Shown here piece by piece: positions 9,901 through 54,970 of a stretch of 64,000 nucleotides of DNA (positions are counted from its first letter, which is position 1; each line of letters starts with the position of its first letter). Where the stretch lies: positions 1 to 64,000 of IMG/VR virus record IMGVR_UViG_3300042275_000095; one strand, 5' to 3'. Source of the DNA: a virus. Lineage: Duplodnaviria > Caudoviricetes. Both the position numbers and the translations under genes were made by a program. The notes under the pieces are model-generated. The model made no database searches. It worked only from the letters and a program-made list of their open reading frames with translations, and was not told the origin of the DNA.

Positions 9901-12900
9901 GTACATTCCTTAATGATATGTATTTTGATGGTGATATTGACAATACTACCAAATCTATATTTCAAAAGCTAGTAGATTTACTTTTAAATTTATTAGGAAT
10001 TACTATAAATGAAGGTAGCCAATTAGCTAAAATACGTGATTTATTAGGTGAACATTACAATAGTAATAAATTCTGGGAAACAATAAAAGATTCTGAAAAA
10101 CAAATATCAGATGAGAAAAGTGAGATATCAGATGAGAAAAGTGAGATATCAGATAAGAATGATAGTGAGAACTCTAAGACTCCCACTGGGGAAGAAAGAA
10201 GCATATCAATTGGAGAGAAACAGTTAAGTAATATAGTAACAATTATTAATAAATTAAAACTAAAAGATAGTAAAACTGATTTCTCAGATATTGAAAATGA
10301 AAGCGTTGCTGAAGTATTTAGATTTTTATACAGTTTACGTAACTTATCTGAAAGTAATATTAATGAGTATATTAAAGGTGCTGATACAGCATTAGATGCT
10401 TATGCTGTTCAAAGTGCATTACAATTAATATTGGGATTACCAATAGGCAGACCTAATGATAATTTAGAAGGTTTATTTGCACATTACTCATTACTAGACG
10501 ATGGAGCATTCTTTGCACCTAATACTATACTATATAATTTATCATCGGTTACTCCAGAGTTTAACGATAAAGGTGAAGTTAGTATAGAAGCTGTAACTCA
10601 ATTACGTGAGTATTTTAAAGAGATAAAAGAAGATTTAGAATTAAATGATATAGTTGAAGGTGATGTAGTACATTCAACTGACTTAAATAATGAAAATGAT
10701 AATAATAAAGTATATCCATTTAATTTAGATGAAGTAGCTAGACACTTATTAAATACAACTGGTAAATTTGAAAATGAATCTGTACAAGATGGCAGTGATG
10801 CTTATACAATGATACATGATTTTAATAGACAATTACGTGAAGTTGGATTACCTGAAGTATTTAAATTAACTAAGATTGAAAATACTATTGATAGGTTACG
10901 CTTAACAATTGACAAAGAAGGATTAGCTTTTATAAATGATGTAATTAACAATACTACATATACTAAGATAACAAGTTTAATACTTAATCGTACATACTCA
11001 AAAGATGGTATTTATTTAAATGGTGTTTTTGATATAGATAGAATTTCAAAAGATAAAAGTTTATCATTATTTTCAAATACTAGAAGTAATGTTAAAGCAT
11101 CTTTATTGGGATATATGGTTAATAAAGCTATATCTGATGCTTTAACTTGGATGTCATCATATGACAATGCAGCTGATGATACTGATGCATTTGAATTATT
11201 AGATGAAAATAAAGGTATTGATTCTACTGTAGCTAATTACTTTGGTGGTGTTAAGAATGTAATTAAATTATTTAATACTAGAGTAACAAGTATAAAGACA
11301 GAAGAAGGTAAAGATATGGCACTTATAAGTGCTTTACCTATCTTAAAAGCTAGGACTATGGCTGTCAAAGTTGGTAAAGGTAGTAAGAAACGTGAAATAC
11401 ATATACCAACTGATAAATTTAATACCACTGGTTTCACTGATGATGCTTTACAAGATATAGCTAACAGTTTAGTTTATTTCTTTGGACGTAGTAGACGTGA
11501 TTTTGTATTACTACTTAATAAACTGTTTGATGATAAAGGTATATTAAGTGATAAAATTAAGGTGCGTAAACAAGTTATAAAAAGTTTAAATAGTATACGC
11601 AACTTGTACAAATCAATGAATGAAAATAATCAATATGATAACTATATTGAGAATTTAACTACTATAATAGATGATTTAAAATTTAGAGATAGTGAGATAT
11701 GGACTAGGTTTATTGCTTATTTAAGTAAAGAAGTTACCATAGCTGAAGAGAGCACTATGTCAATGGATGCTATAATTGATGAGACTATAGCAGGTAGAAA
11801 TACTATGTGGGGTAAAGCAAGGACGCAGCATAAACAAACTGTATCTTCTAATATAAAACATTTATTGTGGGGTAATTTAAACATTCGTAATTCAGAAGAT
11901 GCTTTATCTCATATGAGAGAGCTAACAAGTGATACATCAAGTCTTACTCAATTAGAATATTTGATTAAAAATGATAAAGTTGAAGTATCGTCTATAACAG
12001 GTTTACCTGTTACTATAAAGGCATCTGAAGTTAAAGATATGTTAGTTACTGCTACATCAGGCTCTATAAATAAAAGTGATTTTATAAATAGATTAGAAGA
12101 AGTAACAGCTATACAGCCTGCATTATATCCAATAGTTGAAGCTGTTACCACTAATGGTAATGAAGCATTACTTAGAAAGTTATATACAGCTGTTAAATTA
12201 CAATCTGCATTGTATGTAGTACCTAGTATTAAATCTATATATGGAAGTACAGGTAAAGCTCTAAGATTTAATGTAGCAAATATTGAAGTTAATCCTGCTA
12301 TGGCAATAGCTTCAAATATAAATAATCATTTAACTAATAGAGCTAGATATTTAGAAGTAAAAGCATTAGATAAATTCATTGAAGAATTAAAAGCTGCTAA
12401 AATAGGATTGCATTCTAATAGAACAAAGACAGATGCTATAGTTGCAGCAATGATGCTAATGTTAAAAGATAAATATAAATTTACAATACGTAAAGCTATA
12501 ACTAAAGCAATACGTAAAGATAAATCATTTGTAAGTAATTTTGAAGGTTTGTTAGATTCTTACATTACTAGTTTATCATATGTATCTTATGATAAAGATG
12601 CTAAAAGAGAACTTAATAAACATGACCCTTCAAGTAAAAAAGATGTTGAGGTAAGTGAATTTAAATTATATCATAAAGGTATTAAAGTATTTAAAGTATT
12701 TAATGATATAGCTTATTACTTCCCACTTGATTCTTTTTATACAACTGTTGATTTAACTACAGCTTATTCACATCAATTACCAAACTATTTAACTGAAACT
12801 ATTGATGTAATGAATAATGAAGAAGGATTATTAGAACTTGGTGAAAAATGGTATAATGATCCTGCAATGCGATACAATAGATTATTTAATACATTATTCA

Positions 12901-15900
12901 CAGTTACTAAAGGTAAAGTTAAAATTAAAGATAAAAATATAATAGGTTCTATTAATTATGCTTTATTAGGCGGTAGTATAAATGAAGATTTAAGTAACAG
13001 GATTGAATATGAATCATTGCTAGGTAAAGATTGGACAGTTAGCCAAATGCTATTTTATTTAAGTGATTATATGTTAATGAATAGCTCATCTGATGCTAGT
13101 AGAATATATGGTATATCAATTCCAAATAATAAATTCAAATTTAGAAATAGAAATGAATTTAATCAAATATATGAATTTGTACAAAATAGAAAACAATTAG
13201 ATTCTATTATTAAAAACCCTGCATTTATACAAATACGTAATATACTGTATGGTGAAATTAATGAAATGATTGTAGCAAGAAATGCATTTTTTAACATAGA
13301 TAATATAGATGGTACATTAGAAGTTAAAGATAATGTTAATCCAACTATTTTGTTACAAGGTGTACATAAAAATAAAAAAGGTGAACTATTAGATAAGAAT
13401 GGTAAAACTACAGGTAAAGTATTTACATTTGATAGTCTTAATATAAAACATAATGGTGTTTTATACTCATTTGAGGACTTTTTAGCTGAGGAAGGCATCA
13501 ATTTTATGCCAAATGGCGCACCTTTATTTAATAATGAACAATTATATAATAAAAGAGTTGAAAGCCTTGAAGAAGCTAAAAAAGATATAGCAAATAAAGA
13601 TTTCTTTGACGCTGTTGATTCATTTATAGGTGCTTATATTAAATCATTAATAAATGATAGAATTGCAACTATAAATCAATATAAGGATCAATTATTAGAA
13701 ATTCGCAAATCTGAAATGTCAGAAGTGAATAACTGGTATAATGAAAGTGAAATGATAATTCATCCTGAACAAATAGATATAAATAGGTGGGCTTACTCAT
13801 TTATCATAGATGAGCTATTGTCAAACTTTGATTGGAATAAAGTATTTCAAGGTGACACTATAGAGTTTGGGCCAGCTATTAAACAAAGTAAAAGGCTATC
13901 ACAAATAGGTAGACCTGGTGAAGCTATATTAAGTGATGCCTCTATGTTTACTATGACAATTAAAGATGCTAGTACTGAGAGTAATTTACTTAAACTTATA
14001 CATGATAGATTACCACAATTTGAAGAATACTATAAAGGAGCTGAGGGAATTAAAGATGAAGCTGCTAGTGATGGTATGACATATATGACTAGAAAAGGAT
14101 TTGAGAAATTTATAAAAGAGCAAGGACTAGAAGACAAATATGCACCATTTTTAGAAGCATTAGATAGTCAAGATTATAATTCAGATGCATTTAAATATGG
14201 TATTCAATCACTTAAAACATTTTATTTTAATAGAGATATAGCTGATTATGGAAATGGTTATATGAGAATGACCAGTGAGCAAATCAAACATTCTATATTT
14301 GTATTAACTGAAGATTTTGCATATAGCAAAGACCAACGTGATTTAATTAAGTTTATGGATAGGGTTGGTTTAGATATGATTGACTTTGCTAGTGCTGAGA
14401 AAGTAGGTGTTACGTCTGAGTATGAATTAATGGATCCTAAAACTAAGAGATTAAAAGATGTAAATAATATAAATTATGCGGATATAGCTTATTATATTAA
14501 AGCTAGACCCGTTAATAAATATCGTATTCAGTTACAATTACCTCAACATGGTTTAGATTATTCAGGTAAAGTTGCAACTCAGTTAAAGAGGCAATTTGAA
14601 AACTTAGAAATGGATAATAGGATATATGATATAGAAGGTCAGAAGTTTACAGGAGCTGAACTTTTTAAGATGTATCAACATTTATTTGCTCTTAATATAG
14701 AAGAGGAATCTTTAGCATTATATAAAGAGTTTGGTGTAGAAATGCATAACGGTATACCTATTAGAAATGAGCAAACTGGTTCATTGAGTATAAACAATAA
14801 TGCAATTTATAATTTCATACAGTCATTTGTTACTGAGTATTATAATGAAGCAAACTTAATGGAAGTTGTAGGTATTGACGACAATGGTCAAACTAAACTA
14901 CCTGTTTGGTTTACAACTATAGCTGGAAGATTACAACAACGTATTGTAGCTAGAATAAGAGAGCAAATCTTGCAACAAAAACAAGTTGGAGCGCATGCTG
15001 CAATTGTAGCTAATACATTTGTAAATGGAAGTTTTGATACTTTAGATAACGTTGATAGTTCTAAAATAACATTTAGAAAAGATTATTTAGATAAAGTAAA
15101 GAACGATAGAAATGGAGATATGACTTTACATATTGAACAACGTAAAGTCAAACAAGCTGATGGTACAACTAAGAAAATGCTTATTGCAGAAGCTATCATA
15201 AGTACTCCAAGTGGTAAGTTTGCAAGTAATGGTAAATTATTAAGTATTGATGAATTATATGAAGCTGACCCTAAAGTATTACAAATGTTAGCCCATCGTA
15301 TTCCAATAGAAGGTGAACAATCAATGATAATGATTGATGTTGTTGGAATTATGCATAATAAAGCTAGCCATGTAATATTACCTGATGATGTAGCTGTTAA
15401 ATCTGGAGCTGACTTTGATATTGATACATCATATATGATGTCATATAATTTAGAATATTATAATGGTAAAATACGAACTATACCATATTATGATAAGATA
15501 ACAGATGAAAATATTGATTATCTTTATGATAATTATATTAACAACAACATGACTGATTTATTACGTAATAACCTTAAAGCTATACGTAATGATTTTAATG
15601 CTCAAATGGAAGCTCAAATTCATGATGATAGAGCACTAACAAATGAGGAATTTAAAATAAAGCTAAAAGAATTATTTGAAGATAAAACGAAGTATACTGA
15701 ATTCTTTAATTTACCTGAAGGATTGCAAGAATCATTTAAAGTATTAGAAAAAGATTTTAAATCTCTAGGTTATAAAGGATTTAAGAAGTTTGAATTATAT
15801 GTAAATTTAGTAGATAGTTTGACAATTGTTTTAGCAATGTCTAGAAGTGCTGAACAAATAAGCGAATCTACAATAAATGATTTAATTGATGAACCTGCTG

Positions 15901-18900
15901 CACAAGTATTTCTAAATGATGCATATAATAATTTTAAAACTTTATCCGATAGAGAGTTTTCAGGATTAGCTTACACATTAGATAAGTTACAAAAAGAATA
16001 TAATGACAACTTAAAACATTATAGAAACAAGTTAGATGACTTATTAAATGATCATATTGCTAATCAATTAGCAATTAAAGAAGGTAGATGGAAAGATTAC
16101 CAATCTAATTTATCTGATGCATTAAATGAAATGAAAAAGAATTTAATGACTAAAGATGAATTTAAAAAGATACCTATTGAGGAAATAAATTCTAAGTTAG
16201 CTAGACAAAATAGATTATTAGATATAACAGCTTCTATTATTACATCTGATAATCATTTTGAAAATGTAATGAAAGTTAATGAGTTTCCAGATACTGAGAA
16301 TGCAGCTAAGGCTACTAATAAATTATGGGGAAATGACCTTAGTAACTTAGACCATAATAATGGTAATGATAGAGAAGTATTAAAAAACCTTAACTCTTCA
16401 GCTAAGAAACTAAAAGGTAATAGTATTGCATTTGATAGAACAATGTCTATTTTAAGACCTGTAAATGCAGAATTTGCTAATTTCCAAATACCTGTACCTA
16501 TTGCAAAAGCTGACTTAAAAGCTAGGAATATAACAATGGCTACCTTAGAAAAGAAATATGGGAAAGGTAACATAACTGAACAAGGTGACCATTTAGTTAT
16601 AATGGTATCTAAATTAGGTAACAATTTAACAGGTGATGGTACTACAATATTTGGTACTAATATATTTGAATTTATTAACCAAGCAACTGCCCATATTCTT
16701 GATTCTGCATCAAGGGCTACATCTAAGAACTTAAATGAATACACTTTAGGTGTTTATAAATTATTAAGTATTACAGGTATTACAAATCTTGTAGATTTCA
16801 CTACAAAGGGTTTAAGTAAAAGTGAAATAAATACTAAAGGTGCTACTGAAACTGCTTATTATTATGCAGATTTATTTATTAACCATCCAGCTGTAGTTGA
16901 AATAGCAGCTGAGTTTTTAGATAGAACTGGTATTTTAGCTAATAGCAAAAAGAGTACTGATACGTCTATTATCGTACGAGATATGAAAAATAGATATATT
17001 CAAGAAATGTACACTCAACTATTAGAACTAAATGAAGATATTACCATTGATGAAATAGAAAATAATATAAATAAAAATAAAGGTATTAAATCATTTGATA
17101 TTTTAAAGATTGATAGTACAACATTAAATACAATTTTAAATAAATTAAGCAATTTAATAACAGCTGAACTTAGAAAACTTGAACCTAATGCAGATAATGT
17201 ATCATTGGTAAGAGGCGTTCCAACTATAACATCAATAGAAAATGAAATAAAATATGAAGTTAAGAATGCAAATACATTACGTTCATTAGCAAATAAGTTT
17301 GCATATTTAGATCATTGGGCTACACTAAGAGAACAATCAAATCATATAACTCAAATAACTGGTATATTAAAGCAAGATTCTATAGAGTTAACTGATAGTG
17401 CTATTATAAAAATGGATTATAATATAGGTGAAAATGCTTTTAATCATGATGTACTATTAGAAGAGTTAATAAGATTAAGTAATACAGATATTAGATATTC
17501 GGACTTTATGTCAGAGTTTAATAGATTTAAACAATTGACAAATAAAGAGAAATACAATAAGGTATATAATGAATATCGTCAAGCAGGAATGAATATCAAA
17601 AAGCTGTATAAATTTACAGTTAATGGTCAAAACTTAATTGAAAGTATTTTACCAAGCGCATTTGGTTTAGAACAAGAAAGCTCATATGAAAGTTTAAATA
17701 CATTTTATAAATATGGAGTTGAATTAGCTAAGTCAATATCAAATTCAATGTTTGCATACAACTTCCCAGTTGGTAAAATGATAATTAATACGATAACTAA
17801 GAATGTTACAAACATGTCGGAACGTAACATAAAAACTGCTATTAATTGGTTTAATGGTTGGTTAGCTACTAGTTCTAACATGGCTAATATGCAAGCTCAT
17901 GAAAAGTATAGAATAATGTCATTAATAAATGAGCAATTTAATATAAAATTTAAAGGTGGCAATAACAATTTCACTATTTATAGAAGTGAGGAAGACTTTA
18001 AAGCTAACGTTCCTTTAACTGAAATAGAAATTGAACATTTAACATTATTAGAGAAAATTAATATAGTTAAACAATTAGGAGACTATGTAGATGATTATAC
18101 ATTTATAACTGATATGCGTGTTACAAATGATAAGAACTTTCCTGATAATTCATTTATTAAATTATTATTCCCATCAAATATATCAACTCAGGAAGCTCAA
18201 CGTCAAATAACAGCAATGTATTATGATAATGCTAATCCTATATTCAAATCATTAGTTGAAGATTTATATAAGTATTCATTCCTTAAAGATGGACTAGTAT
18301 TTGGAAATAAGATTTCAAAATTCTTACCTTTCAAGTTCTTAACTACTCCAGGCTTCATGGGTCAAAATACATCATTTGGACAAGAGTTACATATTCAAGC
18401 TAGTAAACTTCATACTTTAGAAGATTTAGCTATAACAGGTATGGGTGAAATTAATAGAGCATTCCATCAATCTAATTGGAATAATCCATCATTTGTACCT
18501 AACTTTTATATGGGTGGTGAAAATGATATTGTAATTGATTTGGCTAAATATAATAGAGATTTAGCAAACTTAAAACCTAAACAATTATTAATGGCTAAGA
18601 AATCAGTTATAGATAATCATAAATTATTAAGAGGTAAAGCTTATATAAAAGACGGACATACAGATAGATTATATGAATTAATACGAACTGATTTAACAGC
18701 TGATACTCAACAATCTGATTACTATTTTTATAGAGAAATTGAACGTAGAGATACATTTGAATATTCAAATACATATGTACAAACTTATAAAGTTAATGAT
18801 ATTGAAACTTTAAATGAGGCTGTAAGTTTAGTATTAAATGGTACTATTAATATTCCATTTAATGATGGAAACGTTAGTAGTTTAAAGAAAGCCAATGGTA

Positions 18901-21900
18901 CATTACTTAATACATCACAAGTTGGAACAGAGCTTACACCATTTGATTCATTAGGTACACATGAAAGAGTTGAATTTAAAGCTGAAGGTAATTATAATAC
19001 TTTATATTCATTAAATGTTGAGGTTGGAATTGATAGACTTGAAAGAATAGTTGCCACTAGTTCTGATATATCTATTGTTGTTGATACAGGTCAAACTGAT
19101 ATTCAAACTGACGATTTACAAAATAAATTAGCAGCTAGTAAATTAAATAATAAATTATTTAGAGTAGGTGGAATTAACTCAAGTAGTTTTATAAAGCAGG
19201 TAAGTGATATTATAAATAATAATATAAATGAGAATGATGCAATTAAATTATCAATTCATATACCATCTACAGGTTACATAAACGACTTAAGTGATTTTAA
19301 TGTTGTAGATATGCTTAATAGGTTAGCAAATGATTTAACTAAATTACCTATGCTAACTAAAGCTGGCCATATAACATTATTAATGGCTAATAATCCTACA
19401 ATAGCTGGACCAATATCATCTGTTATATCTGATATTCAATTTAGAAATGGATATAAACCTAATGTATCTGATGTAATTAATTCTAATGTACTATTCAGTA
19501 AAGGTTTTAGAACTTATAATTCTAATACTCAATTAGAAACTGATGATACTTATGACTATACAGATAATGAAGGTAATGTATATTCAATGGATTTATCAAA
19601 TCCTGAAACTGAATCTAGGATTGATGATTTAAGAGTTAATCAGGAAGCATTATATATGGGTAATAAGACTAATAAGGCAGCTTTTGAATTTATAAATGCA
19701 GCTGCTAAAGAGTCTAAAGCTAAAGTAAAAAGTGTATCTGCTCATATTACTGATATAGTAGGAAAGCGCACTAATGTAAATGTTGATGATTTTGATAAAC
19801 GTGCAGGTAGTGAATTGCATAGCTATTTATTACCAATTGTTAAAGATTTATTAGATAATGTAAAACCTGAGACAATTGAAAATGCTATTAACATTGCACA
19901 TAAAAACTTAATAGCTAAAGAGATAATAACAAGTAATGTAACAGCAGCTGACTTACTTAAAGTAGCAGGCGGTATAATGCAACAAATAGATTCGATTAGA
20001 ACTCAAAGTGGTGTAGATGTACATGAAGCATTTACTGAGTTAGTAATTGCATCTCTTAATCCAAATGCTAAAAATGGTTCTACTTTAACTACAGGCTCTA
20101 TTGATTTATTTGATATGAATAATAAAGGTGGAACTGTATTTGATATTAAATTTTCAAGTAGTACTACTAAGAGTGATACATATGCAGGAGTTGGGCCTAA
20201 TGAATCATTCTCTGCAAGATTTAGACATGCATTGCAAGGTACGTTCTATGCTAGAATGTTAGAAGTACCTGCAATGTTAAGATATAAAGGTATCAATTTA
20301 AAAGCTCCTAGGATATCACCTGATAATATATATTTAGGTAATATTAAAACTACATTAACTACACATGGTAAGAATAATAGACCTATTATAGATTCTTTAG
20401 AGGTAGAAGATTTTATTAATTTAAGTGCAACAACTGATTATATAGATGCTCGTGAGATAGTAAGAAGTGCTGATATATTACCAATGGATAATACAGAACG
20501 AGCACTATATAAAGAACATTTAAAATCGTTAGAACTTAGAGGCACTCAAGCAACAATCAGAAAGGCTAAAGATACAGTAGAAGCTATTAATGCTGCACTA
20601 GTTGCTATGGAACATGAATATGGTAATGGGCCGTATAAAGAGTTAATACAATCACTTACAGCATTAATTCCTGAGCTTACTGAAAAGATGGATATTACTA
20701 GTCTAGATGTAATGTTATCTAAAATTATAAATAATCTAAGAGACTTTACAGCATTTGGGTTACGTAATATTACATATTTGGAAGAACGTGCTAAGTATTA
20801 TAATGATCCTAAATTAAGTATGTATCAACTTGTAAGGAGTATTAACAATTCTAATAGATTTGTTAAGGATATGAACCTTATAAATAAAATGGTTAATATA
20901 GTTAAAGGTGCTCAAGATTTAACACTTATTGAAACTGAAGGCATTGATAATATATTAACAGCTAACTTAATAGACGCTTATAATAATACTGTAGAAGGAT
21001 TAACAAGTGGTGAAAATGGATTGTTAAATAAGGCTTTAGAATTACATAAAATATACTCTCAGTCAATTAGAGAATATATGACTGAATTAATAGCATTTAA
21101 TAGTAGAAATCCTAAAGTTCAAGAGTTCATAATTAGAAACGAAGATGGAAGTATAGATTTTGAACAAACAGATACAAATGTATTATTTAGATTTGAAGAT
21201 ATATCTATTCCAGCTTTATGGTTAGATTCTAGATTTGACCACGGTATTCCATTTGATGATGCAATAGGTATGACTGATAGAGTTATTAAAGATAAGATTA
21301 ATCACGAAAAGCAAATGGAAAGGTTAGTCTTTTATAAGTTATTAGCTAAAGCATATAAAGGTGATGATAAATGGAGATATAAAGGTGATACTTTAAAGAA
21401 ATCAGCTGAAATTACTAAATGGTTTAAAGATATATTCATGGCTAAAGACTATGATGGTAAGGATACAATGCATTTAGTAACTGCCCATAATGAACAAATC
21501 TTTTATGGTAAGATAGTAGATATGATCGCTAGAATACAAATAGCTACAGAGTCATGGGAAGAGAATGAAGCTAAAGAGCTAAGAAAGAAACTAGAAGAAG
21601 AAGGCTTAAATGAAAATCAAATAAAATATGAATTAAAAAAGGCAAGGTCTGCTTCTAGAATTAACTTATTAAAAGAATATGAAGAGTTTTATAATAAATA
21701 TGGAGATAAACTTGGTGCTAGTAAAGTAGTAGTAGGAGAAGGTGCGACCAGAGTTGAAATGTCAATTAAGAACTTTATTGATAAATATACATCTGGTATG
21801 AATGAACAACAAAAGCGTATATTCTTAGCATATCATGGTATCATTCGTGACCCATATAGAAAGTTAATTGTTTTAAGACCTAAGAGTAAAGCCTTAGATA

Positions 21901-24341
21901 AAGGAGATAACATAGAACCTAATAAGCAATTTCAACGTATAATGAATGACCCTAATTTAAAGGGATTATATGATTACTTAATTGGTTTACCTAGCAAGTT
22001 ATTGGATTTTAATAAAGGTATTATAGTAGACCCAAGTAGAATACCATTATTATATAATGGTGAAAGAAGTAATTGGCAAAGCTTTGTAAGATTTATGGGA
22101 TTTGCAGCAACTGAAGCAAGTAGTACAACAGCTATGACAGATATTACCAATAAAACAGTATATAACTTAAGTGTTCCAATGCTAGGTCTATTATTTAATA
22201 AAGAGAGATTAGTATTTAGAAATAGACGTAGAAATGAAAAACAAGAAGATTATGAACGTTCTATAGTAAATTATGTTAACAAAGAGTACGGTAGAGACTT
22301 TACTAGTTATAGTGAGATACTAGCACATAATAAAGCTGAAACTCTACAACGTAAGCAGTTAACATTAGAAAAGATGGAATATAACCCTCTTAAAATATAT
22401 AGATCATTTATAGAAGAGAGTTTAAACTATAAAGAAAAGATGTTACTTCATGATCAATATTCTATGTATACAGACTTCTTAGGAGAGTTTGCAAAGAGTT
22501 ATGTATTACATAAAGGTAAACCTAAAAAAGACGTAGCTAAAAAGAAATCACAACAGTCAGATGAATTTCTATTTGAAAGTGGAGATAAGAGTAATTTAGC
22601 AAATCTTGTTCAAACTTACATGAAAAGTAAGATATATCAAACTGATGAATTTAAAATGAATCAAACTTATGAACGTATATTTAAAGGTTTACGTCAGTTA
22701 ACATCATTACGTGTTATGTCAGGTAACATTAGAGCAGGTGTTAAGAACTTAACAAAAGGTGTGATTGATATAATGTCAGAAGGGGAATCTGGTCAATTTG
22801 TAGATAGAACAGGTTTGATAAAAGGATTTAGACAATATAGAAGTGCCATATCAGAGATTATAGCAAATCCTCATAGTGAAGAAACTAATAATTTAGCAGC
22901 TGCTTTTATAAAAGAGCATAATACATTATTAGAAAAACAAAATGAAAAAGGACAAGAGATTACATCTGATGTTAAAAACACTGCTGATAGGTTATTGATG
23001 GCTACAGATTTAGCATATTTCTTTAATAATGCAGGTGAACATATAATGCAATATGGAATGTATTTAGGAATGTTAAATTCACATAGAGTAGTGGATGGTA
23101 CAATTATGAATATGTCTGATTATATGGGCAATTTAGCACAAGAGTTATTAAAAGGTAATTTAACTGAAGAGGAGCTAAAGGAATTTGAGACCTATAAAAC
23201 TAAATATAGTGAAAAGGAATCATGGCGACCATTTGAATATACTGATTACTTTGGAAGGTGGATTATAAACTCTACAATTCTACATAAGAACTCTTCATTA
23301 TTGAAAAAAGTTAAAAATATTTATAAAACTGAATATAAGAAACTTAAAAAACAAAAAGAAAAAGATTTTAAATCTTATAAAACAGTATATGAATCTCATA
23401 CTACTAAAGATGGATTATTAAGTCTTAAAAAAGAGGTTAAGTTAAACCAGAATGAATTTACAAAGTTTAAATTACGTGTTAAACGAGTAAATCACAGTAT
23501 GCATGGTATTTATAATAGAGTTGATGCATCTAAACTACAAACATATGTGTGGGGTGAAACATTAACACAGTTTAGAAAGTGGATGCGACCTAATTGGAAT
23601 AGGTGGTATGGTCAAAGATTCAATAGAACAATATGGAATGAAGGACTTAACACTTGGACTAAAGGTTCTGCTATAAGTATGTGGGATTTAGCATTTAGAC
23701 CTTTCCAAGAATACAGAATGTTAGATAAGAACGAAAGAGCATCAGTTAATTTATTTAAAGCTGTATTGAGATATTGGGGTCAAATGGGAACTATGTATCG
23801 AACAATGGACGATATTGATAAACGTAACATTCGTAGATTCATGTTTAATTTCTCAGCATTCTTAACTACTGTATTTGCTGCTATGTTTGCTGCATCAGGA
23901 TTAGACGATTGGAAGAAAAAGAGTAAAACAAATGAATTACTATATGGATTCTTAATGTATCAAGTATCATCAATGTCTATGGAACTTAGTGAATTTACTC
24001 CTATATTGGGATGGAAATCAATATTTGATAGATTTATTGATAGTCCTGCACCATCACTTAAAACTGTTACTGACTTTAGTAAGTTATTAGGTTATGGTTT
24101 AGGTGAAGCAGGTACAATGTTTGGTATACCTTATGAATCTAGATTCCAAGGAGGGCCTAAGAAAGGACGTAGTAAATTTAATTCACAGTTGATGTCATTA
24201 GTACCATTAGCACGTGAAGTTTACAGTTTACGTAATATAAGTTCTATTGTTGATTACTATAAAATGAATGATACATTTAAACTACAAGAGAAATTCACAG
24301 ATTTAACTAAGCCTTCAAAAGCAGGTGGTAGAGAGAGATAG
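6999..24341 (+). CDS. Giant virion RNA polymerase polyprotein (crAss-type), with zincin and PD-(D/E)xK domains
   Basis: 5780 aa. GADFDID metal-binding loop (15411-15425) preceded by HRIP; HELVH..EELF zincin motif (9573-9587); GSELH..TGSIDLF..FDIK..Q..Y nuclease motif (~19800-20260); C-terminal hydrophobic helix. Confidence 0.9.
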   Translation: MACVYVYTDSNGKTRKYKTINDFINNHHSEIWNEFVDYMSNRNNIAADSDIWYGKEMLDSFKNYVYNEFKRDVPREDNTISEETQEFINRATDIEHTLTTLETLAIEGHLYNEEVIEMLKAKVENAFNELGSRETSMFTEEGMYKAENIINSIANELIKIRNSQASEESYDAVVHDAEIMRDNLDFTNSLDLSSTFTEVEQLNNDLREDKQESANAVSALQFETNEGNSIGDKVKRASEKGFIDIEDVFTEEQLEQFNKILNLKEGDKLTAEIDKSNPRYEQNKANFNNVPIVLKRNGIKVAYLNEISVSDLNNNSYSASTFSLRNRVFYNSNGKAINLKIKSIGNTNTNIWAPRQYTGDAIGANNTKLGNAIKKLRGKEAKDSIGGFKIARVSKDKNNKKQLVNVKTGQPVHNRVKDRTNKFYVELKTIGDNSVWFPLNNATVSETSQGNDNFSKYLTTEVAHRMLEYIKAIKEYHTYLEYKRKADLNQDVKVIRNGKEVAFTDAQIQKGLIDSKNELDSREDKLHELISIGKFDNKSYFNYERNIKDIRLKALNSNSVIMEDGFQETLEIIPRINGEPLTMYFLGNKHQIDDLDSSEFYDLLHSVAKGMTRNIQIEATGVIQNVENFTVTLRNKKGDVKYKKEFKNYIDYVLKTDALLTDVGAITKNGKPISNLNMAASALFTLEVETTTSTKSKLNEELKNASNIEMTVEEFVNKFVQDLEIASSLKEVMNNFKRTGVKIAKGAISAKDVIESEFKGNYIKDAKLLKRFKELKKLGSKRTNSQNKEYNALKETNETDKQDRINNTRVQFLFNAKTNTIHFTTYAISRLKDAEVAYNNGDIDTANFIIDTVRWGAIHELVHPLLRVSFSPDMGVGKATTNKEKYAKFSDDALEIVNQILNKYSTLRNTLIERGHLTDNEVAKLDAWKTKILEGAVLPNLIQLKNTGVLNYNIEELFTYAFTDKTISTFLNDMYFDGDIDNTTKSIFQKLVDLLLNLLGITINEGSQLAKIRDLLGEHYNSNKFWETIKDSEKQISDEKSEISDEKSEISDKNDSENSKTPTGEERSISIGEKQLSNIVTIINKLKLKDSKTDFSDIENESVAEVFRFLYSLRNLSESNINEYIKGADTALDAYAVQSALQLILGLPIGRPNDNLEGLFAHYSLLDDGAFFAPNTILYNLSSVTPEFNDKGEVSIEAVTQLREYFKEIKEDLELNDIVEGDVVHSTDLNNENDNNKVYPFNLDEVARHLLNTTGKFENESVQDGSDAYTMIHDFNRQLREVGLPEVFKLTKIENTIDRLRLTIDKEGLAFINDVINNTTYTKITSLILNRTYSKDGIYLNGVFDIDRISKDKSLSLFSNTRSNVKASLLGYMVNKAISDALTWMSSYDNAADDTDAFELLDENKGIDSTVANYFGGVKNVIKLFNTRVTSIKTEEGKDMALISALPILKARTMAVKVGKGSKKREIHIPTDKFNTTGFTDDALQDIANSLVYFFGRSRRDFVLLLNKLFDDKGILSDKIKVRKQVIKSLNSIRNLYKSMNENNQYDNYIENLTTIIDDLKFRDSEIWTRFIAYLSKEVTIAEESTMSMDAIIDETIAGRNTMWGKARTQHKQTVSSNIKHLLWGNLNIRNSEDALSHMRELTSDTSSLTQLEYLIKNDKVEVSSITGLPVTIKASEVKDMLVTATSGSINKSDFINRLEEVTAIQPALYPIVEAVTTNGNEALLRKLYTAVKLQSALYVVPSIKSIYGSTGKALRFNVANIEVNPAMAIASNINNHLTNRARYLEVKALDKFIEELKAAKIGLHSNRTKTDAIVAAMMLMLKDKYKFTIRKAITKAIRKDKSFVSNFEGLLDSYITSLSYVSYDKDAKRELNKHDPSSKKDVEVSEFKLYHKGIKVFKVFNDIAYYFPLDSFYTTVDLTTAYSHQLPNYLTETIDVMNNEEGLLELGEKWYNDPAMRYNRLFNTLFTVTKGKVKIKDKNIIGSINYALLGGSINEDLSNRIEYESLLGKDWTVSQMLFYLSDYMLMNSSSDASRIYGISIPNNKFKFRNRNEFNQIYEFVQNRKQLDSIIKNPAFIQIRNILYGEINEMIVARNAFFNIDNIDGTLEVKDNVNPTILLQGVHKNKKGELLDKNGKTTGKVFTFDSLNIKHNGVLYSFEDFLAEEGINFMPNGAPLFNNEQLYNKRVESLEEAKKDIANKDFFDAVDSFIGAYIKSLINDRIATINQYKDQLLEIRKSEMSEVNNWYNESEMIIHPEQIDINRWAYSFIIDELLSNFDWNKVFQGDTIEFGPAIKQSKRLSQIGRPGEAILSDASMFTMTIKDASTESNLLKLIHDRLPQFEEYYKGAEGIKDEAASDGMTYMTRKGFEKFIKEQGLEDKYAPFLEALDSQDYNSDAFKYGIQSLKTFYFNRDIADYGNGYMRMTSEQIKHSIFVLTEDFAYSKDQRDLIKFMDRVGLDMIDFASAEKVGVTSEYELMDPKTKRLKDVNNINYADIAYYIKARPVNKYRIQLQLPQHGLDYSGKVATQLKRQFENLEMDNRIYDIEGQKFTGAELFKMYQHLFALNIEEESLALYKEFGVEMHNGIPIRNEQTGSLSINNNAIYNFIQSFVTEYYNEANLMEVVGIDDNGQTKLPVWFTTIAGRLQQRIVARIREQILQQKQVGAHAAIVANTFVNGSFDTLDNVDSSKITFRKDYLDKVKNDRNGDMTLHIEQRKVKQADGTTKKMLIAEAIISTPSGKFASNGKLLSIDELYEADPKVLQMLAHRIPIEGEQSMIMIDVVGIMHNKASHVILPDDVAVKSGADFDIDTSYMMSYNLEYYNGKIRTIPYYDKITDENIDYLYDNYINNNMTDLLRNNLKAIRNDFNAQMEAQIHDDRALTNEEFKIKLKELFEDKTKYTEFFNLPEGLQESFKVLEKDFKSLGYKGFKKFELYVNLVDSLTIVLAMSRSAEQISESTINDLIDEPAAQVFLNDAYNNFKTLSDREFSGLAYTLDKLQKEYNDNLKHYRNKLDDLLNDHIANQLAIKEGRWKDYQSNLSDALNEMKKNLMTKDEFKKIPIEEINSKLARQNRLLDITASIITSDNHFENVMKVNEFPDTENAAKATNKLWGNDLSNLDHNNGNDREVLKNLNSSAKKLKGNSIAFDRTMSILRPVNAEFANFQIPVPIAKADLKARNITMATLEKKYGKGNITEQGDHLVIMVSKLGNNLTGDGTTIFGTNIFEFINQATAHILDSASRATSKNLNEYTLGVYKLLSITGITNLVDFTTKGLSKSEINTKGATETAYYYADLFINHPAVVEIAAEFLDRTGILANSKKSTDTSIIVRDMKNRYIQEMYTQLLELNEDITIDEIENNINKNKGIKSFDILKIDSTTLNTILNKLSNLITAELRKLEPNADNVSLVRGVPTITSIENEIKYEVKNANTLRSLANKFAYLDHWATLREQSNHITQITGILKQDSIELTDSAIIKMDYNIGENAFNHDVLLEELIRLSNTDIRYSDFMSEFNRFKQLTNKEKYNKVYNEYRQAGMNIKKLYKFTVNGQNLIESILPSAFGLEQESSYESLNTFYKYGVELAKSISNSMFAYNFPVGKMIINTITKNVTNMSERNIKTAINWFNGWLATSSNMANMQAHEKYRIMSLINEQFNIKFKGGNNNFTIYRSEEDFKANVPLTEIEIEHLTLLEKINIVKQLGDYVDDYTFITDMRVTNDKNFPDNSFIKLLFPSNISTQEAQRQITAMYYDNANPIFKSLVEDLYKYSFLKDGLVFGNKISKFLPFKFLTTPGFMGQNTSFGQELHIQASKLHTLEDLAITGMGEINRAFHQSNWNNPSFVPNFYMGGENDIVIDLAKYNRDLANLKPKQLLMAKKSVIDNHKLLRGKAYIKDGHTDRLYELIRTDLTADTQQSDYYFYREIERRDTFEYSNTYVQTYKVNDIETLNEAVSLVLNGTINIPFNDGNVSSLKKANGTLLNTSQVGTELTPFDSLGTHERVEFKAEGNYNTLYSLNVEVGIDRLERIVATSSDISIVVDTGQTDIQTDDLQNKLAASKLNNKLFRVGGINSSSFIKQVSDIINNNINENDAIKLSIHIPSTGYINDLSDFNVVDMLNRLANDLTKLPMLTKAGHITLLMANNPTIAGPISSVISDIQFRNGYKPNVSDVINSNVLFSKGFRTYNSNTQLETDDTYDYTDNEGNVYSMDLSNPETESRIDDLRVNQEALYMGNKTNKAAFEFINAAAKESKAKVKSVSAHITDIVGKRTNVNVDDFDKRAGSELHSYLLPIVKDLLDNVKPETIENAINIAHKNLIAKEIITSNVTAADLLKVAGGIMQQIDSIRTQSGVDVHEAFTELVIASLNPNAKNGSTLTTGSIDLFDMNNKGGTVFDIKFSSSTTKSDTYAGVGPNESFSARFRHALQGTFYARMLEVPAMLRYKGINLKAPRISPDNIYLGNIKTTLTTHGKNNRPIIDSLEVEDFINLSATTDYIDAREIVRSADILPMDNTERALYKEHLKSLELRGTQATIRKAKDTVEAINAALVAMEHEYGNGPYKELIQSLTALIPELTEKMDITSLDVMLSKIINNLRDFTAFGLRNITYLEERAKYYNDPKLSMYQLVRSINNSNRFVKDMNLINKMVNIVKGAQDLTLIETEGIDNILTANLIDAYNNTVEGLTSGENGLLNKALELHKIYSQSIREYMTELIAFNSRNPKVQEFIIRNEDGSIDFEQTDTNVLFRFEDISIPALWLDSRFDHGIPFDDAIGMTDRVIKDKINHEKQMERLVFYKLLAKAYKGDDKWRYKGDTLKKSAEITKWFKDIFMAKDYDGKDTMHLVTAHNEQIFYGKIVDMIARIQIATESWEENEAKELRKKLEEEGLNENQIKYELKKARSASRINLLKEYEEFYNKYGDKLGASKVVVGEGATRVEMSIKNFIDKYTSGMNEQQKRIFLAYHGIIRDPYRKLIVLRPKSKALDKGDNIEPNKQFQRIMNDPNLKGLYDYLIGLPSKLLDFNKGIIVDPSRIPLLYNGERSNWQSFVRFMGFAATEASSTTAMTDITNKTVYNLSVPMLGLLFNKERLVFRNRRRNEKQEDYERSIVNYVNKEYGRDFTSYSEILAHNKAETLQRKQLTLEKMEYNPLKIYRSFIEESLNYKEKMLLHDQYSMYTDFLGEFAKSYVLHKGKPKKDVAKKKSQQSDEFLFESGDKSNLANLVQTYMKSKIYQTDEFKMNQTYERIFKGLRQLTSLRVMSGNIRAGVKNLTKGVIDIMSEGESGQFVDRTGLIKGFRQYRSAISEIIANPHSEETNNLAAAFIKEHNTLLEKQNEKGQEITSDVKNTADRLLMATDLAYFFNNAGEHIMQYGMYLGMLNSHRVVDGTIMNMSDYMGNLAQELLKGNLTEEELKEFETYKTKYSEKESWRPFEYTDYFGRWIINSTILHKNSSLLKKVKNIYKTEYKKLKKQKEKDFKSYKTVYESHTTKDGLLSLKKEVKLNQNEFTKFKLRVKRVNHSMHGIYNRVDASKLQTYVWGETLTQFRKWMRPNWNRWYGQRFNRTIWNEGLNTWTKGSAISMWDLAFRPFQEYRMLDKNERASVNLFKAVLRYWGQMGTMYRTMDDIDKRNIRRFMFNFSAFLTTVFAAMFAASGLDDWKKKSKTNELLYGFLMYQVSSMSMELSEFTPILGWKSIFDRFIDSPAPSLKTVTDFSKLLGYGLGEAGTMFGIPYESRFQGGPKKGRSKFNSQLMSLVPLAREVYSLRNISSIVDYYKMNDTFKLQEKFTDLTKPSKAGGRER
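10104..10155 (+). repeat. In-frame 21-bp tandem repeat (ISDEKSE x2.5)
   Basis: atatcagatgagaaaagtgag twice, then atatcagata. Confidence 0.9.
10181..10204 (+). repeat. Dispersed 24-bp motif, copy 1 (inside the RNAP gene)
   Basis: TCCC ACTG GG GAAGAAA GAAGCAT. Confidence 0.75.
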
Positions 24342-24408: not shown

Positions 24409-24984
24409 TTAATTCTCACTTCCTTCTAATATATTACGTGTTTCAGCTAACTTAATATAATAATCAGGAAACTCATCTTTTAAAATATCTGTTATGTGAG
24501 TTGTATATATAATATAATCATTACTACTTAATGGAATATTCACTGTAGCTTTGTGATCAGTTGCAGTTATTATATATACATTTATAGTAATATCATCACT
24601 TGTAACTAAATGATCTAATTTATCTTTATTTACAGAATATCCAATTGTATCTACAACTCCTAATAGTTTACCTTCTTTTAAATTACATAATAATAATTTA
24701 TTGTCAGAAATAGTGTTTAAATGATTAATTAATGAATCTGTAATATTCAATGATATTCTACTATTATTGTAAACATTAGCTTTATATATTAACAATTCTT
24801 TAGGACGTATAGAGTTTAATCCTAATAAATAATCTGCATATTCACGATTAGCAGTCTCAACTATTTTTGAGTTTCTACTTCTATTTGAATAGAATTTAAT
24901 AGTGTTAGTAAAACTAACTAATTTATACTTAGTAAAGTATTCTACCTTTAATGTATAGTTTCGTTTAGAACTTTTATGTCCCAT
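24409..24984 (-). CDS. Hypothetical protein
   Basis: 191-aa ORF, last gene of the minus-strand block. Confidence 0.7.
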   Translation of the reverse strand: MGHKSSKRNYTLKVEYFTKYKLVSFTNTIKFYSNRSRNSKIVETANREYADYLLGLNSIRPKELLIYKANVYNNSRISLNITDSLINHLNTISDNKLLLCNLKEGKLLGVVDTIGYSVNKDKLDHLVTSDDITINVYIITATDHKATVNIPLSSNDYIIYTTHITDILKDEFPDYYIKLAETRNILEGSEN

Positions 24985-25013: not shown

Positions 25014-25074
25014 ATGCATCTTTTTCTCCTATAGGGGGATTCCTTACAACTCCCTAAAGGAAAGAGAGATGCAC
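25014..25074. repeat. Back-to-back inverted pair of the 24-bp motif (copies 2 and 3)
   Basis: Minus strand 25037-25014: CCCC TATA GG AGAAAAA GATGCAT. Plus strand 25051-25074: TCCC TAAA GG AAAGAGA GATGCAC. Intergenic. Confidence 0.85.
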
Positions 25075-25093: not shown

Positions 25094-25315
25094 TTAATAC
25101 TTTATAGTTTCACATTCCGAATTTAATATAATAGGACTTTTTGAACTTGCTATTATTAAATTTTTGAATTTCAATAAATAGTACTCATCTCGCTCCACAC
25201 TTTCATTTTCTTCGTCAAATACTTGTAAGATTTCAAAATCTCCTATTTTATCCATCACTGTGTATAATATATAGTTATATACATAACCTTCAACTTTTAT
25301 TAAATTAATTGCCAT
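25094..25315 (-). CDS. Hypothetical protein
   Basis: 73-aa ORF with an A-rich upstream leader. Confidence 0.65.
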   Translation of the reverse strand: MAINLIKVEGYVYNYILYTVMDKIGDFEILQVFDEENESVERDEYYLLKFKNLIIASSKSPIILNSECETIKY

Positions 25316-25327
25316 AATTTTGATTTT

Positions 25328-25355
25328 AAAAAGGGAGTGCTTTTACACACTCCCT
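25328..25355 (-). terminator. Intrinsic terminator after dUTPase
   Basis: AGGGAGTG/CACTCCCT stem followed by a U-tract on the minus strand. Confidence 0.75.
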
Positions 25356-25402
25356 ACACACAGTTAATAATTAACCTTACAACTTAAAAATAAGGCTATT
25401 TC

Positions 25403-34225: not shown

Positions 34226-34626
34226 ATTGTATTTTTTAAATTTAATCCATTTAATGCATTGGATGCTATATCAATATTAGGTTTAAACTTTTCTTTAGTA
34301 GCTTTAACTGACCGTTTACCTTTATTTGAACGATCATTGATTTTAGCTTTGTTCGCTTCCCACATTTTATATTCATCCTCTTTAGCTGGCATTAATTCTA
34401 ACCCTGTTGCAAATGTTTTAGCTCTACCATCAGTCACTTCACATATTTGATAATATAGCCCATTTCTATCAACAATTTCAACATTTGAAACTGTAAGTTC
34501 AGCAGTAGTATCTACTTTTGTAATTTGTAAACTCATACTACTAGGTGTAATGTATTTAACTTTATCACCTTTTTGATATTTAACAATTCCTATAAATTTA
34601 CTCATAGCCTTCAAATAAGTTACCAC
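34222..34626 (-). CDS. Hypothetical protein (SH3-like N-terminus, basic tail)
   Basis: KYQKGDKVKY pattern. The real start may be the internal Met (MSKFIG). Confidence 0.65.
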   Translation of the reverse strand: MVTYLKAMSKFIGIVKYQKGDKVKYITPSSMSLQITKVDTTAELTVSNVEIVDRNGLYYQICEVTDGRAKTFATGLELMPAKEDEYKMWEANKAKINDRSNKGKRSVKATKEKFKPNIDIASNALNGLNLKNTI

Positions 34627-44529: not shown

Positions 44530-44961
44530 TTATATTAATAACCTAAGTAACATTCCTACAACTAATCCAATTGTTACACTTACACGTATTATACCCCTAC
44601 GTTTGACTGAATTACAAAATATGATTGCATTACTAGTATTACCTGTTAAACTTATTATTTTTTTAAGTACATCTAATCTATACTTATGAGGTGCAAATAC
44701 TAATATTAAAGTATTTATTGTAATAAATAGCTCACTTAATCTTACTAATCCAAGTAAAATAAGAAACATGTTAAATCTAGTACTAAATTTCATATATAAG
44801 TGAGCTTCACGTAATTTATTATATACTTTATTATCAGTAATTGCAAGGTCATATACACTTTTATGTGTTTTATCATTTGATTTATTTAATGCATCTAATA
44901 CTTCATTAAAGTTTTTCATAGCAATGGTTATTAAATTAGTGAATAATCGGTAATTCCCCAT
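44530..44961 (-). CDS. Membrane hypothetical protein
   Basis: Two hydrophobic segments. The start may be the internal Met at 44919. Confidence 0.65.
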   Translation of the reverse strand: MGNYRLFTNLITIAMKNFNEVLDALNKSNDKTHKSVYDLAITDNKVYNKLREAHLYMKFSTRFNMFLILLGLVRLSELFITINTLILVFAPHKYRLDVLKKIISLTGNTSNAIIFCNSVKRRGIIRVSVTIGLVVGMLLRLLI

Positions 44962-44979
44962 ACGGGAAAAGAGAAGCCA
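44956..44979 (+). repeat. Dispersed 24-bp motif, copy 5
   Basis: CCCC ATAC GG GAAAAGA GAAGCCA. Confidence 0.75.
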
Positions 44980-47498: not shown

Positions 47499-47936
47499 TT
47501 AGTTGTTAAATGTTGAGTAAAACATTTTAGTTAAAAAGATTATCAAATCGTTACTTCTATTAGATAAATTGTATTTCATATGAAATGTAATTTCATTAGA
47601 TTCGGTTAATTCATCTAATTTATTTATAAAGTTTGATAATTCACTGTAGAGTTTAGTAATATCATTATATTCCTTAGTGTCTAATCTGTATTCGACAATG
47701 AAATTACCATGATATACTACATCAGTAACTTTAGCTAATTCTTTGTATAGTTTCTTATTTTGATTAATAAGTTCTTTTTCATTAGCTAAAGTTATCTTAT
47801 TCTCGTTGCCATGTAGAATGTTTAAACGAACTGTTAATACATCAGTATAATAAAATATTGAAATATCAACTTTTATAATATCATTCTTATTTGGCATATC
47901 ATTGAATAGGTCTAAAGACCCTGAAGTGTTTGCCAT
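47499..47936 (-). CDS. Hypothetical protein
   Basis: 145-aa ORF whose ATG lies inside motif copy 6. Confidence 0.7.
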   Translation of the reverse strand: MANTSGSLDLFNDMPNKNDIIKVDISIFYYTDVLTVRLNILHGNENKITLANEKELINQNKKLYKELAKVTDVVYHGNFIVEYRLDTKEYNDITKLYSELSNFINKLDELTESNEITFHMKYNLSNRSNDLIIFLTKMFYSTFNN

Positions 47937-47954
47937 CTTTCTTTCCTTTAGGGG
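47931..47954 (-). repeat. Dispersed 24-bp motif, copy 6
   Basis: CCCC TAAA GG AAAGAAA GATGGCA. Confidence 0.8.
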
Positions 47955-54229: not shown

Positions 54230-54478
54230 TTACAAATAGTACCATGTAGTACTATTGGCATCACACTGTAATGGTCTATTACCTTGTAACTCAAAGTCAT
54301 CAGGTAATTCCAAACGTGTGTTCCAATATGTACCATCAGTAGCACCATCCATATAGCGTGTGTCTGTAGTATATCCTACATATGCATCCTCAGATACACT
54401 CTCAGGATCATTAGGATAAAATGTACTACTACCATCACGCCATTCTGTGAGGTTACCGAATATATACATACGGTACAT
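54230..54478 (-). CDS. First gene of the minus-strand block; small acidic/aromatic protein
   Basis: 82-aa ORF. Confidence 0.55.
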   Translation of the reverse strand: MYRMYIFGNLTEWRDGSSTFYPNDPESVSEDAYVGYTTDTRYMDGATDGTYWNTRLELPDDFELQGNRPLQCDANSTTWYYL

Positions 54479-54662
54479 TTACTGTGCTATCAACTACTAG
54501 TCCTTGATAACGTAGGACTGTGTCACTTGACACTTACCAATAAATAAATAAAATAATTATTCATTTATTGGTAATTAAATGTAAATGAAGGGCTACCCTT
54601 GGTAGGGGGTACTCCACTTACAACAATTTGTACCCGTCGCTGATATAGGTGGGTCACGCTAG

Positions 54663-54897
54663 AACACCCTCACTCTATTTTCACATCTTCCAAACTATCC
54701 TAAACTCTAATATATTTTACTATCATCTCCTTCTAATCCAACTAACCAATATTATCTCTAATCTCTAATCTACTCCACTTAACAATTAATCAATCTCACC
54801 TTATCTCTACCAAATTAAATACTCTACCTTTCTAACTATTAAATAACTAATCAACCCCCTACCCCCTACTACCCTACTTTAATATAATATATAATAA
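54663..54897 (+). other. 235-nt guanine-free tract in the divergent intergenic region
   Basis: No G on the plus strand between 54663 and 54897; ends with CCCCCTACCCCCTACTACCC. Confidence 0.85.
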
Positions 54898-54946
54898 GTA
54901 CCGGTCATTTAATATTGTAAATAACTAGCAAGCGTTAGCTAATAAA

Positions 54947-54970
54947 GTGCATCTCTTTCTCCTTTAGGGA
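54947..54970 (-). repeat. Dispersed 24-bp motif, copy 7
   Basis: TCCC TAAA GG AGAAAGA GATGCAC, followed by TTT as in copy 3. Confidence 0.85.

Follow-up and report, generated by a model that had tools for sequence, protein, structure and literature searches.

Introduction

A 24-nucleotide (nt) word, YCCC-N4-GG-R7-GAWGS, recurs on both strands of the virus record IMGVR_UViG_3300042275_000095 of IMG/VR, of which positions 1 to 64,000 were analysed as a single stretch (hereafter the window). Its closest published parallels are the nick-associated motifs of T5, phiKMV-like and tf/LUZ24-like phages. In these phages and in Rembedalsseter, ~5–14 motifs per genome are found in and between genes, at map positions that are similar in relatives, and as clade-specific variants that are thought to co-evolve with the enzyme (PMC3517423, PMC11780129); co-evolution of motif and nickase has been proposed for phage tf (PMC3517423). 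The motifs are 7–19 nt long, have no hairpin part, all lie on one strand, and have a coding share equal to the coding density (PMC3517423, PMC11780129). The word in the window is similarly dispersed, and in the three related genomes described below it is met at similar map positions and in clade-specific variants. It differs in being 24 nt long and bipartite, in lying on both strands (seven copies on one and four on the other), in forming inverted pairs and in being enriched in non-coding DNA.

T7 and T3 promoters are sharp words of 20–30 nt that co-evolve with their polymerase and may lie inside upstream genes, and the hairpin promoter of the N4 virion RNA polymerase (RNAP) has a stem of 5–7 base pairs (bp) and a 3-nt loop. 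Like the promoters of phage RNAPs (T7/T3, N4, and P23-45 with its vRNAP and nvRNAP), the word is a sharp sequence of 20–30 nt, is an outlier in composition and is purine-rich after GG. Those promoters all face their genes, whereas six of the 11 copies described here are antisense and six lie inside open reading frames (ORFs). In contrast to the N4 hairpin, the possible stems are 2–5 bp long, with loops of 4–6 nt and folding energies of −1.1 to −6.0 kcal/mol. The stoperators of cluster A mycobacteriophages, 13–14 bp long and set in one orientation to transcription, belong to temperate phages with an immunity repressor. They resemble the present word as asymmetric, dispersed sequences that co-evolve, here putatively, with a phage protein; their length, their single orientation and the traits of temperate phages with an immunity repressor are unseen here. 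In RSF1010 ssiA/ssiB and the nic sites of oriT, a hairpin on one strand precedes by a few bases a conserved box, at which the enzyme acts. The origin of RSF1010 is made up of two such signals, one on each strand, and the enzymes are known (RepB′ primase; HUH relaxases elsewhere). The inverted pair in the window resembles this arrangement. Signals of the RSF1010 and relaxase kind occur once or twice per replicon, in contrast to the ~11–31 copies reported here, and such an enzyme was undetected among the 58 phage proteins tested.

crAss-like phages are among the most abundant viruses known, and to our knowledge the replication, packaging and first expression of their DNA remain largely unknown. 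The source of the window is a divergent crAss-like phage from wastewater with a GC content of 25–32%. A plus-strand block extends to 24341 and includes an ORF of 5780 amino acids (aa) for the virion RNAP; a minus-strand replication block runs from ~54.5 to 24.4 kb with polB, SF1 helicase, UDG and dUTPase; and a second plus-strand block, which in relatives includes the crAss capsid gene, begins at 55.3 kb. Most genes of the phage have no Shine-Dalgarno site. Its polB is only ~30% identical to those of crAss phages in GenBank, and no close polB relative was found in IMG/VR. A first-pass annotation, made by a model from the letters and ORFs of the window, had reported the word and knew of no such element in Crassvirales; literature searches likewise found no published description of it for this group.

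Results and Discussion

A bipartite word on both strands

The pattern YCCC-N4-GG-R7-GAWGS has exactly seven exact matches in the window, and these are the seven copies that the first-pass annotation had listed, each on the strand given there: 10181–10204 (+), 25014–25037 (−), 25051–25074 (+), 35254–35277 (−), 44956–44979 (+), 47931–47954 (−) and 54947–54970 (−). Copies are named below by the position of their 5′ base and their strand. In 100 dinucleotide-preserving shuffles the pattern was matched a mean of 0.00 times (maximum 0). The whole genome comprises 91,109 bases, the first 253 of which recur at its end, and two further exact copies, 79575− and 87900−, lie beyond the window. A weight matrix built from these nine canonical copies and run on the whole genome gave them scores of 38.7–50.1 bits, the next best site scoring 6.5 bits; there were no intermediates. 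The shuffles and this bimodal distribution bear out the annotation's rough estimate that chance recurrence is very unlikely.

When two mismatches were tolerated, a single extra weak match appeared in the window, 63594+. With 24 copies from four genomes as its basis, a covariance model recovered the nine canonical copies at 26–36.5 bits and gave three further matches, 85135+ (21.6 bits), 63594+ (18.1 bits, E = 0.17) and 9621− (16.4 bits, E = 0.42), above noise of at most 12.7 bits. Because orthologous sites in relatives support them, 85135+ and 9621− were accepted as copies. The doubtful match 63594+ (63594–63617, inside ORF 63302–64822) is probably a chance match: its protein is conserved in relative r1 (see below) and the DNA word is not, and the site is explained by the protein sequence. 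The census therefore stands at nine canonical copies and two variants; among these 11, seven are minus-strand and four are plus-strand copies. No other repeat family or comparably enriched word of note was found in the genome.

The spacing of ~10 kb to which the annotation had drawn attention is suggestive and weakly supported, with P values of 0.02–0.12 for the minus-strand copies according to the set of copies counted. Alternation of strands among the 11 copies is not significant (P ~0.17, hand count). No exact match to the word was found in IMG/VR. Elsewhere, the seven exact matches in 596 Gb of prokaryote genomes and the 12 in JGI metagenomes are at the level expected by chance, and tblastx shows no relation between them and the phage; the idea of a host motif was rejected.

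Read along its purine-rich strand, the word has a weak flank resembling TAAA; YCCC is followed by four bases, which are TAAA in four of the nine canonical copies, and then come GG, seven purines, and GATGC or GAAGC, usually followed by A, a pyrimidine and then a T-rich run. The CCC and GG blocks are invariant, and the 7-nt tract keeps its purine character while its bases vary. Similarity among copies does not extend past ~30 nt. The fixed length proposed in the annotation holds for the nine canonical copies; variants and relatives take 1–2 extra bases in the loop or the purine tract, which span 4–6 and 7–9 nt, respectively. From these features we infer a candidate CCC/GG mini-hairpin (possible stem 2–5 bp; −1.1 to −6.0 kcal/mol when folded as RNA), a purine spacer, and a GATGC-type box.

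Selection on the word as DNA

Three metagenome assemblies with polB homologues 59–78% identical to that of the window were used for comparison: r1 (SRR28093312, contigs of 41.9 and 41.0 kb), r2 (ERR2721180, 55.8 kb) and r3 (SRR11702760, 36.1 kb). In these phages, whose proteins have diverged to 46–78% identity, both the place of a copy within its gene and its orientation are preserved. The polB copy, 35277−, lies in sense orientation inside polB (34598–36835), directly after the catalytic NTDG motif, and occupies an identical codon position in all four genomes. Both sites in the virion RNAP ORF (6999–24341) are also present in four of four genomes, at identical alignment columns and in some cases with loops of 5 or 6 nt. 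The first is the canonical sense copy 10181+, which recurs in r1 (as a 6-nt loop variant), r2 and r3. The second is 9621− (9598–9621), an antisense variant with a 6-nt loop and a GATAC box, located 560 bp from 10181+ and facing away from it; r2 and r3 carry strong canonical copies in the corresponding columns, and r1 carries a near-identical variant that differs in its GATAC-type box.

A back-to-back pair precedes the last gene of the replication block, ORF 24409–24984, in four of four genomes. Its sense arm, 25037−, is intergenic and lies 30 nt upstream of this ORF; its antisense arm, 25051+, follows after a spacer of 13 nt; and the pair sits downstream of a terminator-like hairpin. The antisense arm is kept in all four genomes and the sense arm in r1 and r3, so that r2 has the antisense arm only. 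The arms do not co-vary in relatives, and the spacer ranges from 13 to 16 nt. Copy 54970−, which heads the leftward replication/early block from within the divergent control region and is upstream of a C-poor non-coding stretch, is present in both genomes for which the region is available, the r1 copy (L008 987−) having a conserved 3′ flank. Beyond the window, the canonical copy 79575− (antisense, inside an ORF) is present in three of three genomes, including r1 and r2. The variant 85135+ (sense, within the last 50 nt of ORF 84480–85184) and the canonical copy 87900− (antisense, inside an ORF) are each present in two of three, being kept in r1 and absent from r2. The comparison covers all copies except 44956+ and 47954−, which lie in the early region beyond the relatives' contigs. 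The former has a GAAGC box, is antisense to local genes and overlaps the start codon of ORF 44530–44961; the latter is in sense orientation and its ATG is the start codon of ORF 47499–47936.

The coding copies are written in some of the rarest codons of the genome. The annotation had singled out the codons of the polB copy, and their usage is indeed low (GTC 2%, CCC 1%, GGG 5%). In the four genomes the wobble C of its Val/Leu codon is retained as GTC, GTC, GTC and CTC (usage 2% and 1%), in surroundings where neighbouring synonymous sites and even amino acids differ, and for each genome the core has a probability of 3e-3 to 8e-3 given the protein. The sense copy in the virion RNAP uses CCC or TCC (1% each); in the window its Pro codon is CCC and the corresponding probability is 4e-4. 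Where the word runs antisense, TCC, AGG or CGG, and GAG or GGG codons are imposed on the gene. Given protein and genome codon usage, the probability of the core ranges from 2e-5 to 8e-3 per coding copy. Synonymous-codon shuffles of all genes (300 trials) gave no full match, against four observed in coding DNA, and 0.09 core matches per genome, against six observed. Codon shuffling and a test for synonymous constraint at the polB and RNAP copies had both been proposed in the annotation, and both outcomes agree with its view of a DNA-level signal independent of gene boundaries.

Coding copies fall in different reading frames and both orientations, with no insertions or deletions in the conserved coding sequence. 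Since copies cross essential genes in rare codons, hold fixed sites and are absent from codon shuffles, selection acts on the DNA itself; the signal is real, strongly selected and conserved. Five of the 11 copies are intergenic or overlap a gene start (25037−, 25051+, 44956+, 47954− and 54970−), in a genome that is only ~6% non-coding, and the other six lie inside ORFs, three in sense (10181+, 35277− and 85135+) and three in antisense orientation (9621−, 79575− and 87900−). Relative to local transcription, five copies are sense and six antisense. This independence of orientation weighs against a message-level element or an ordinary promoter.

The word also differs between genomes in a consistent manner. 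In r2, one and the same 17-mer, with the loop GGAA, is found in three copies located in unrelated genes, whereas TAAA is the favoured loop in the window and r1; as the 3′ box, GATGC prevails in the window, GATAC in r1 and AATGC in r2. Because sites drift together within a genome while their positions stay fixed, this genome-specific dialect points to a reader encoded by the phage.

A related word in prototype crAssphage

Prototype crAssphage (BK010471) contains 31 copies of a related word, consisting of a C-run, a 4-nt loop, a purine arm able to pair with the C-run side, and a GATGG/GATGC box directly after. The plus strand carries 18 of them and the minus strand 13, and six close inverted pairs occur. 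Eleven copies are intergenic, compared with 6% non-coding DNA, and those within genes are sense in nine cases and antisense in 11. Two inverted pairs, each face to face (28077–28183 of L029, and 45745–45875 of L030, which is 95745–95875 of BK010471), are located 260–540 bp upstream of the two RepL replication-initiator genes. These genes, gp43 and gp88, match Pfam RepL with E = 4e-9 and 7e-5, and one of them is the last of its replication block, the same map position as that of the pair in the window. With six pairs in 97 kb the association with RepL is unlikely to arise by chance, but it was spotted after the fact.

The two genomes are alike in the order of C-run, loop, purine arm and GATG box, in the use of both strands in either sense, in intergenic enrichment and in inverted pairs. 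They differ in that the box directly follows the hairpin in BK010471 and the RepL-proximal pairs are face to face among 31 copies, whereas the window genome has a 7–9 nt purine spacer before the box, ~11 copies and a back-to-back pair. Neither the place nor the orientation of the copy in polB is the same in the two, the RNAP regions do not align, and the proteins are only ~30% identical; no orthologous site shared by the two genomes was found. In view of the common features, the word in the window looks like another dialect of one kind of signal, and common descent of the two words is plausible.

phi14:2 is the one crAss-like phage in which transcription has been studied, and the early genes that its virion RNAP transcribes share no upstream motif. 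The first 50 kb of its genome lack the word, and no comparably enriched GC-rich word was found there. phi14:2 does not support a universal virion-RNAP start signal.

How the word may be read

The explanation that we tentatively favour, on the basis of the sequence comparisons above, is a strand-specific signal that a phage enzyme reads as single-stranded DNA, nicking or starting strands there. In this explanation the word would be a cis-acting DNA signal of the lineage that is not read through messages or proteins. When the strand is single-stranded or extruded, a mini-hairpin would form by pairing of CCC with GG(G), and the site of enzyme action would be the GATGC-type box, 7–9 purines 3′ of GG, or its vicinity. 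The likeliest act would be a site-specific nick or the start of a new strand (a primer or displacement strand) in replication or packaging, and the back-to-back pair would be a two-strand version of the signal and a candidate origin-like site. A one-strand reading is suggested by the strand asymmetry, the purine-only spacer, the second box, the indifference to transcription, the fixed sites, the dialects and the inverted pairs. The flexible loop (4–6 nt) and spacer (7–9 nt) are the reason for preferring a hairpin on one strand to a rigid two-half site in duplex DNA. The sequence of hairpin, spacer and box would also be that of relaxase or rolling-circle nick sites and single-strand initiation signals. 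The inverted pairs of the related word before both RepL genes of BK010471, in a genome that uses both strands, are consistent with this explanation, and we infer a link to replication.

Several observations weigh against it. The hairpin is weak and variable, and with CCC and GG invariant there is zero covariation to support a structure. Published phage nick motifs are confined to one strand and ~88% within genes (PMC3517423, PMC11780129), whereas here the strands are divided seven to four and five of 11 copies are non-coding. Were both strands nicked at the pair, the nicks would be 14 bp apart and in effect a double-strand break. In an analysis of the coordinates, neither an origin at 55 kb nor one at 25 kb made the orientations consistent. 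Searches of 58 phage proteins against Pfam and PHROGs detected no nickase, HUH enzyme, RepL or primase family, the only matches being dUTPase, UDG and SF1 helicase plus weak HU-like and VtrC matches, and a six-frame search of the genome for RepL was negative. Models of a Ter-like fork trap, of lagging-strand use and of ejection direction were rejected by the same analysis of coordinates, as no placement of origin or end fits the orientations.

On a wider scale it is possible, though we hold the whole of it doubtful, that many Crassvirales, from prototype crAssphage to this lineage, have a common system of strand-specific hairpin-plus-box signals, maintained by selection at 10–30 fixed sites on both strands and read by a phage enzyme, and that this system serves multi-site strand initiation, programmed nicking, or handling at ejection or packaging, without a counterpart in model phages.

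A second explanation, which we consider unlikely, is that the copies are duplex sites for a phage-encoded regulator, initiator or architectural protein, comparable to DnaA boxes, iterons or centromere-like sites and usable in either orientation. The pair would then be an operator or origin before the last replication gene, while single copies would tune transcription, titrate the protein or organise the chromosome. Indifference to orientation is expected of such sites, genome-specific dialects fit a co-evolving protein, and the inverted pairs before both RepL genes of BK010471 would suit an initiator. Enrichment in control regions (the divergent region of 54970−, the pair after a terminator, two copies overlapping gene starts) points the same way, as does an HU/IHF-like gene at 55658–56083, the Pfam match of which is weak and below cut-off (E = 4e-4). 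A rigid two-part site would, however, poorly tolerate distances between blocks that vary by 1–2 bp and loops of 4–6 nt, and a tract that keeps purines and not their identity is unusual for base-specific reading of duplex DNA. Spacing within the pair varies (13–16 nt), with one arm gone in r2; long-kept copies lie deep in the polB, RNAP and tail genes with no nearby promoter; and no DNA-binding family was found beside the pair, the 191-aa neighbour being an orphan.

We judge it improbable that the copies are start signals for a phage-specific RNAP such as the injected virion RNAP, with CCC and the loop serving in recognition or melting, GG as the start, the purines as the first transcribed bases, and antisense copies giving regulatory or priming RNAs. 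P23-45 polymerases do use sharp promoter words, and four copies (54970−, 47954−, 35277− and 25037−) point along the replication block, the early class that the virion RNAP transcribes in phi14:2. Of these, 54970− heads a conserved non-coding unit, 47954− heads a gene, and 25037− follows a terminator-like hairpin with a T-run. Yet six of 11 copies are antisense to local genes, an orientation that is conserved in relatives, and the pair of r2 retains precisely its antisense arm. The early transcripts of phi14:2 lack a common motif, and neither the word nor a comparable one is enriched in its first 50 kb. Nor does the word have the form of an N4 virion-RNAP promoter, and at 47954− the start codon lies inside the word.

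An element acting in RNA, whether a Shine-Dalgarno sequence with a start or leader peptide, a hairpin like lambda boxB, or pairs of sense and antisense RNAs, is very improbable. The word does resemble a textbook ribosome-binding site followed by ATG, its exact matches in public sequences look by eye like starts of this type, and 47954− supplies a start codon. Against this, no annotated gene is in the sense direction for about half of the copies, two canonical copies (10181+ and 44956+) and several orthologues (including those in polB of r1 and r3) have no ATG, and the frames that follow the ATGs are, as read from the sequence, short and unrelated in a phage most of whose genes do without a Shine-Dalgarno site. 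The arms at 25 kb could form a 24-bp RNA helix (20 of 24 pairs by hand count), but they show no co-variation, r2 has a single arm, and the window has no Rfam match.

That the word has no function of its own, as a product of chance, a by-product of protein sequence or a mobile REP-like repeat, is barely credible and already contradicted by the data: such an origin accounts for the weak match 63594+, which its protein sequence explains, and the intergenic copies and inverted pair recall REP/BIME units, but the word is absent from dinucleotide and codon shuffles, overwrites conserved coding sequence without insertions or deletions, keeps its sites and orientations where other synonymous sites have by eye largely diverged, and shows no similarity beyond ~30 nt. 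The remaining probability lies with mechanisms that we have not thought of.

Several specific identities were tried and rejected. A Shine-Dalgarno translation start does not fit, as only 47954− starts an ORF, several copies have no ATG and half are antisense. The GG-N10-GC spacing of sigma-54 promoters fits most canonical copies (47954− has GG in place of GC), but relatives replace GC (GATAC, GATAT) and shift the spacing by 1–2 nt, and there is no CAC after GG. A scan for sigma-70-type promoters showed no enrichment over shuffles. One long RNA hairpin at the pair is contradicted by arms that do not co-vary and by the single arm of r2. REP, BIME or REPIN elements were rejected because about half of the copies lie in coding sequence without insertions or deletions and no transposase family was found among the proteins tested. 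A search of the window with Rfam 15 and for tRNAs gave no Rfam match and no tRNA gene. With respect to the mechanisms that the first-pass annotation had offered as candidates, stoperators, one-strand nick motifs and a universal virion-RNAP start fit poorly, and the others stay candidates.

That selection maintains the word at its sites on either strand, even where polB and the virion RNAP pay for it with the rarest codons, suggests a step of the life cycle outside current models. The 11 defined sites in this genome and the 31 in prototype crAssphage provide a direct experimental handle, and the dialects may be used to find the gene for the reader by phyletic comparison and to classify crAss lineages. 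What the window adds is a new lineage and dialect, a bipartite anatomy with flexible loop and spacer, and codon-level proof of selection at orthologous sites.

Surroundings of individual copies

The 191-aa gene behind the pair (24409–24984, minus strand) is an orphan with one homologue among 1.8 billion representatives (31% identity, in r1); other small genes stand at its place in r2 and r3. It has no family match and no similarity to crAssphage RepL, and an Atlas search gave no usable match. Its AlphaFold model is mostly beta and, with a pLDDT of 57, too poor for a fold search. On the other side of the pair, a GC-rich hairpin with a T-run at 25320–25360 (minus strand), in the form of an intrinsic terminator, ends the dUTPase operon. 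The distance from this hairpin to the pair is 60 nt in r1; in the window a 73-aa ORF (25094–25315) lies between them.

Immediately 5′ of 10181+, a tandem 21-nt repeat at 10111–10164 encodes a low-complexity acidic linker of the virion RNAP, a segment that is highly variable across the four phages. The ends of the record, 1–253 and 90857–91109, are identical, which may reflect a direct terminal repeat or, if the genome is circular or permuted, an overlap left by assembly. The 253-base overlap covers the start of ORF 25–2265.

All three relatives' contigs end at or near the borders of the early small-gene region at ~43.4–54.2 kb, and contigs from wastewater runs change to unlike sequence at the recurring points 36304/36337, 45505, 48427 and 53350, which suggests that the early region is hypervariable or mosaic. 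Contigs from four wastewater runs, compared over 35.1–55.1 kb, did not differ at the sites, and none of their ends was informative.

Downstream of 54970−, a stretch of ~250 nt within 54540–54900 (minus strand) contains hardly any C and is rich in the other three bases, and is followed by a structured segment and an AT-rich hairpin at ~54540–54590. Its composition and flanking blocks are kept in r1, whereas its own sequence is not, and it is reminiscent of the early non-coding RNAs that are reported to be abundant in phi14:2. The divergent control region at 55040–55266 is ~90% identical to that of r1 and contains two direct repeats of ~35 nt. Within it, a near-consensus sigma-70-type promoter is predicted on the minus strand at 55083–55056 (TTGACA, 16 nt, TATATT), which would start a leftward transcript ~80 nt upstream of 54970−.

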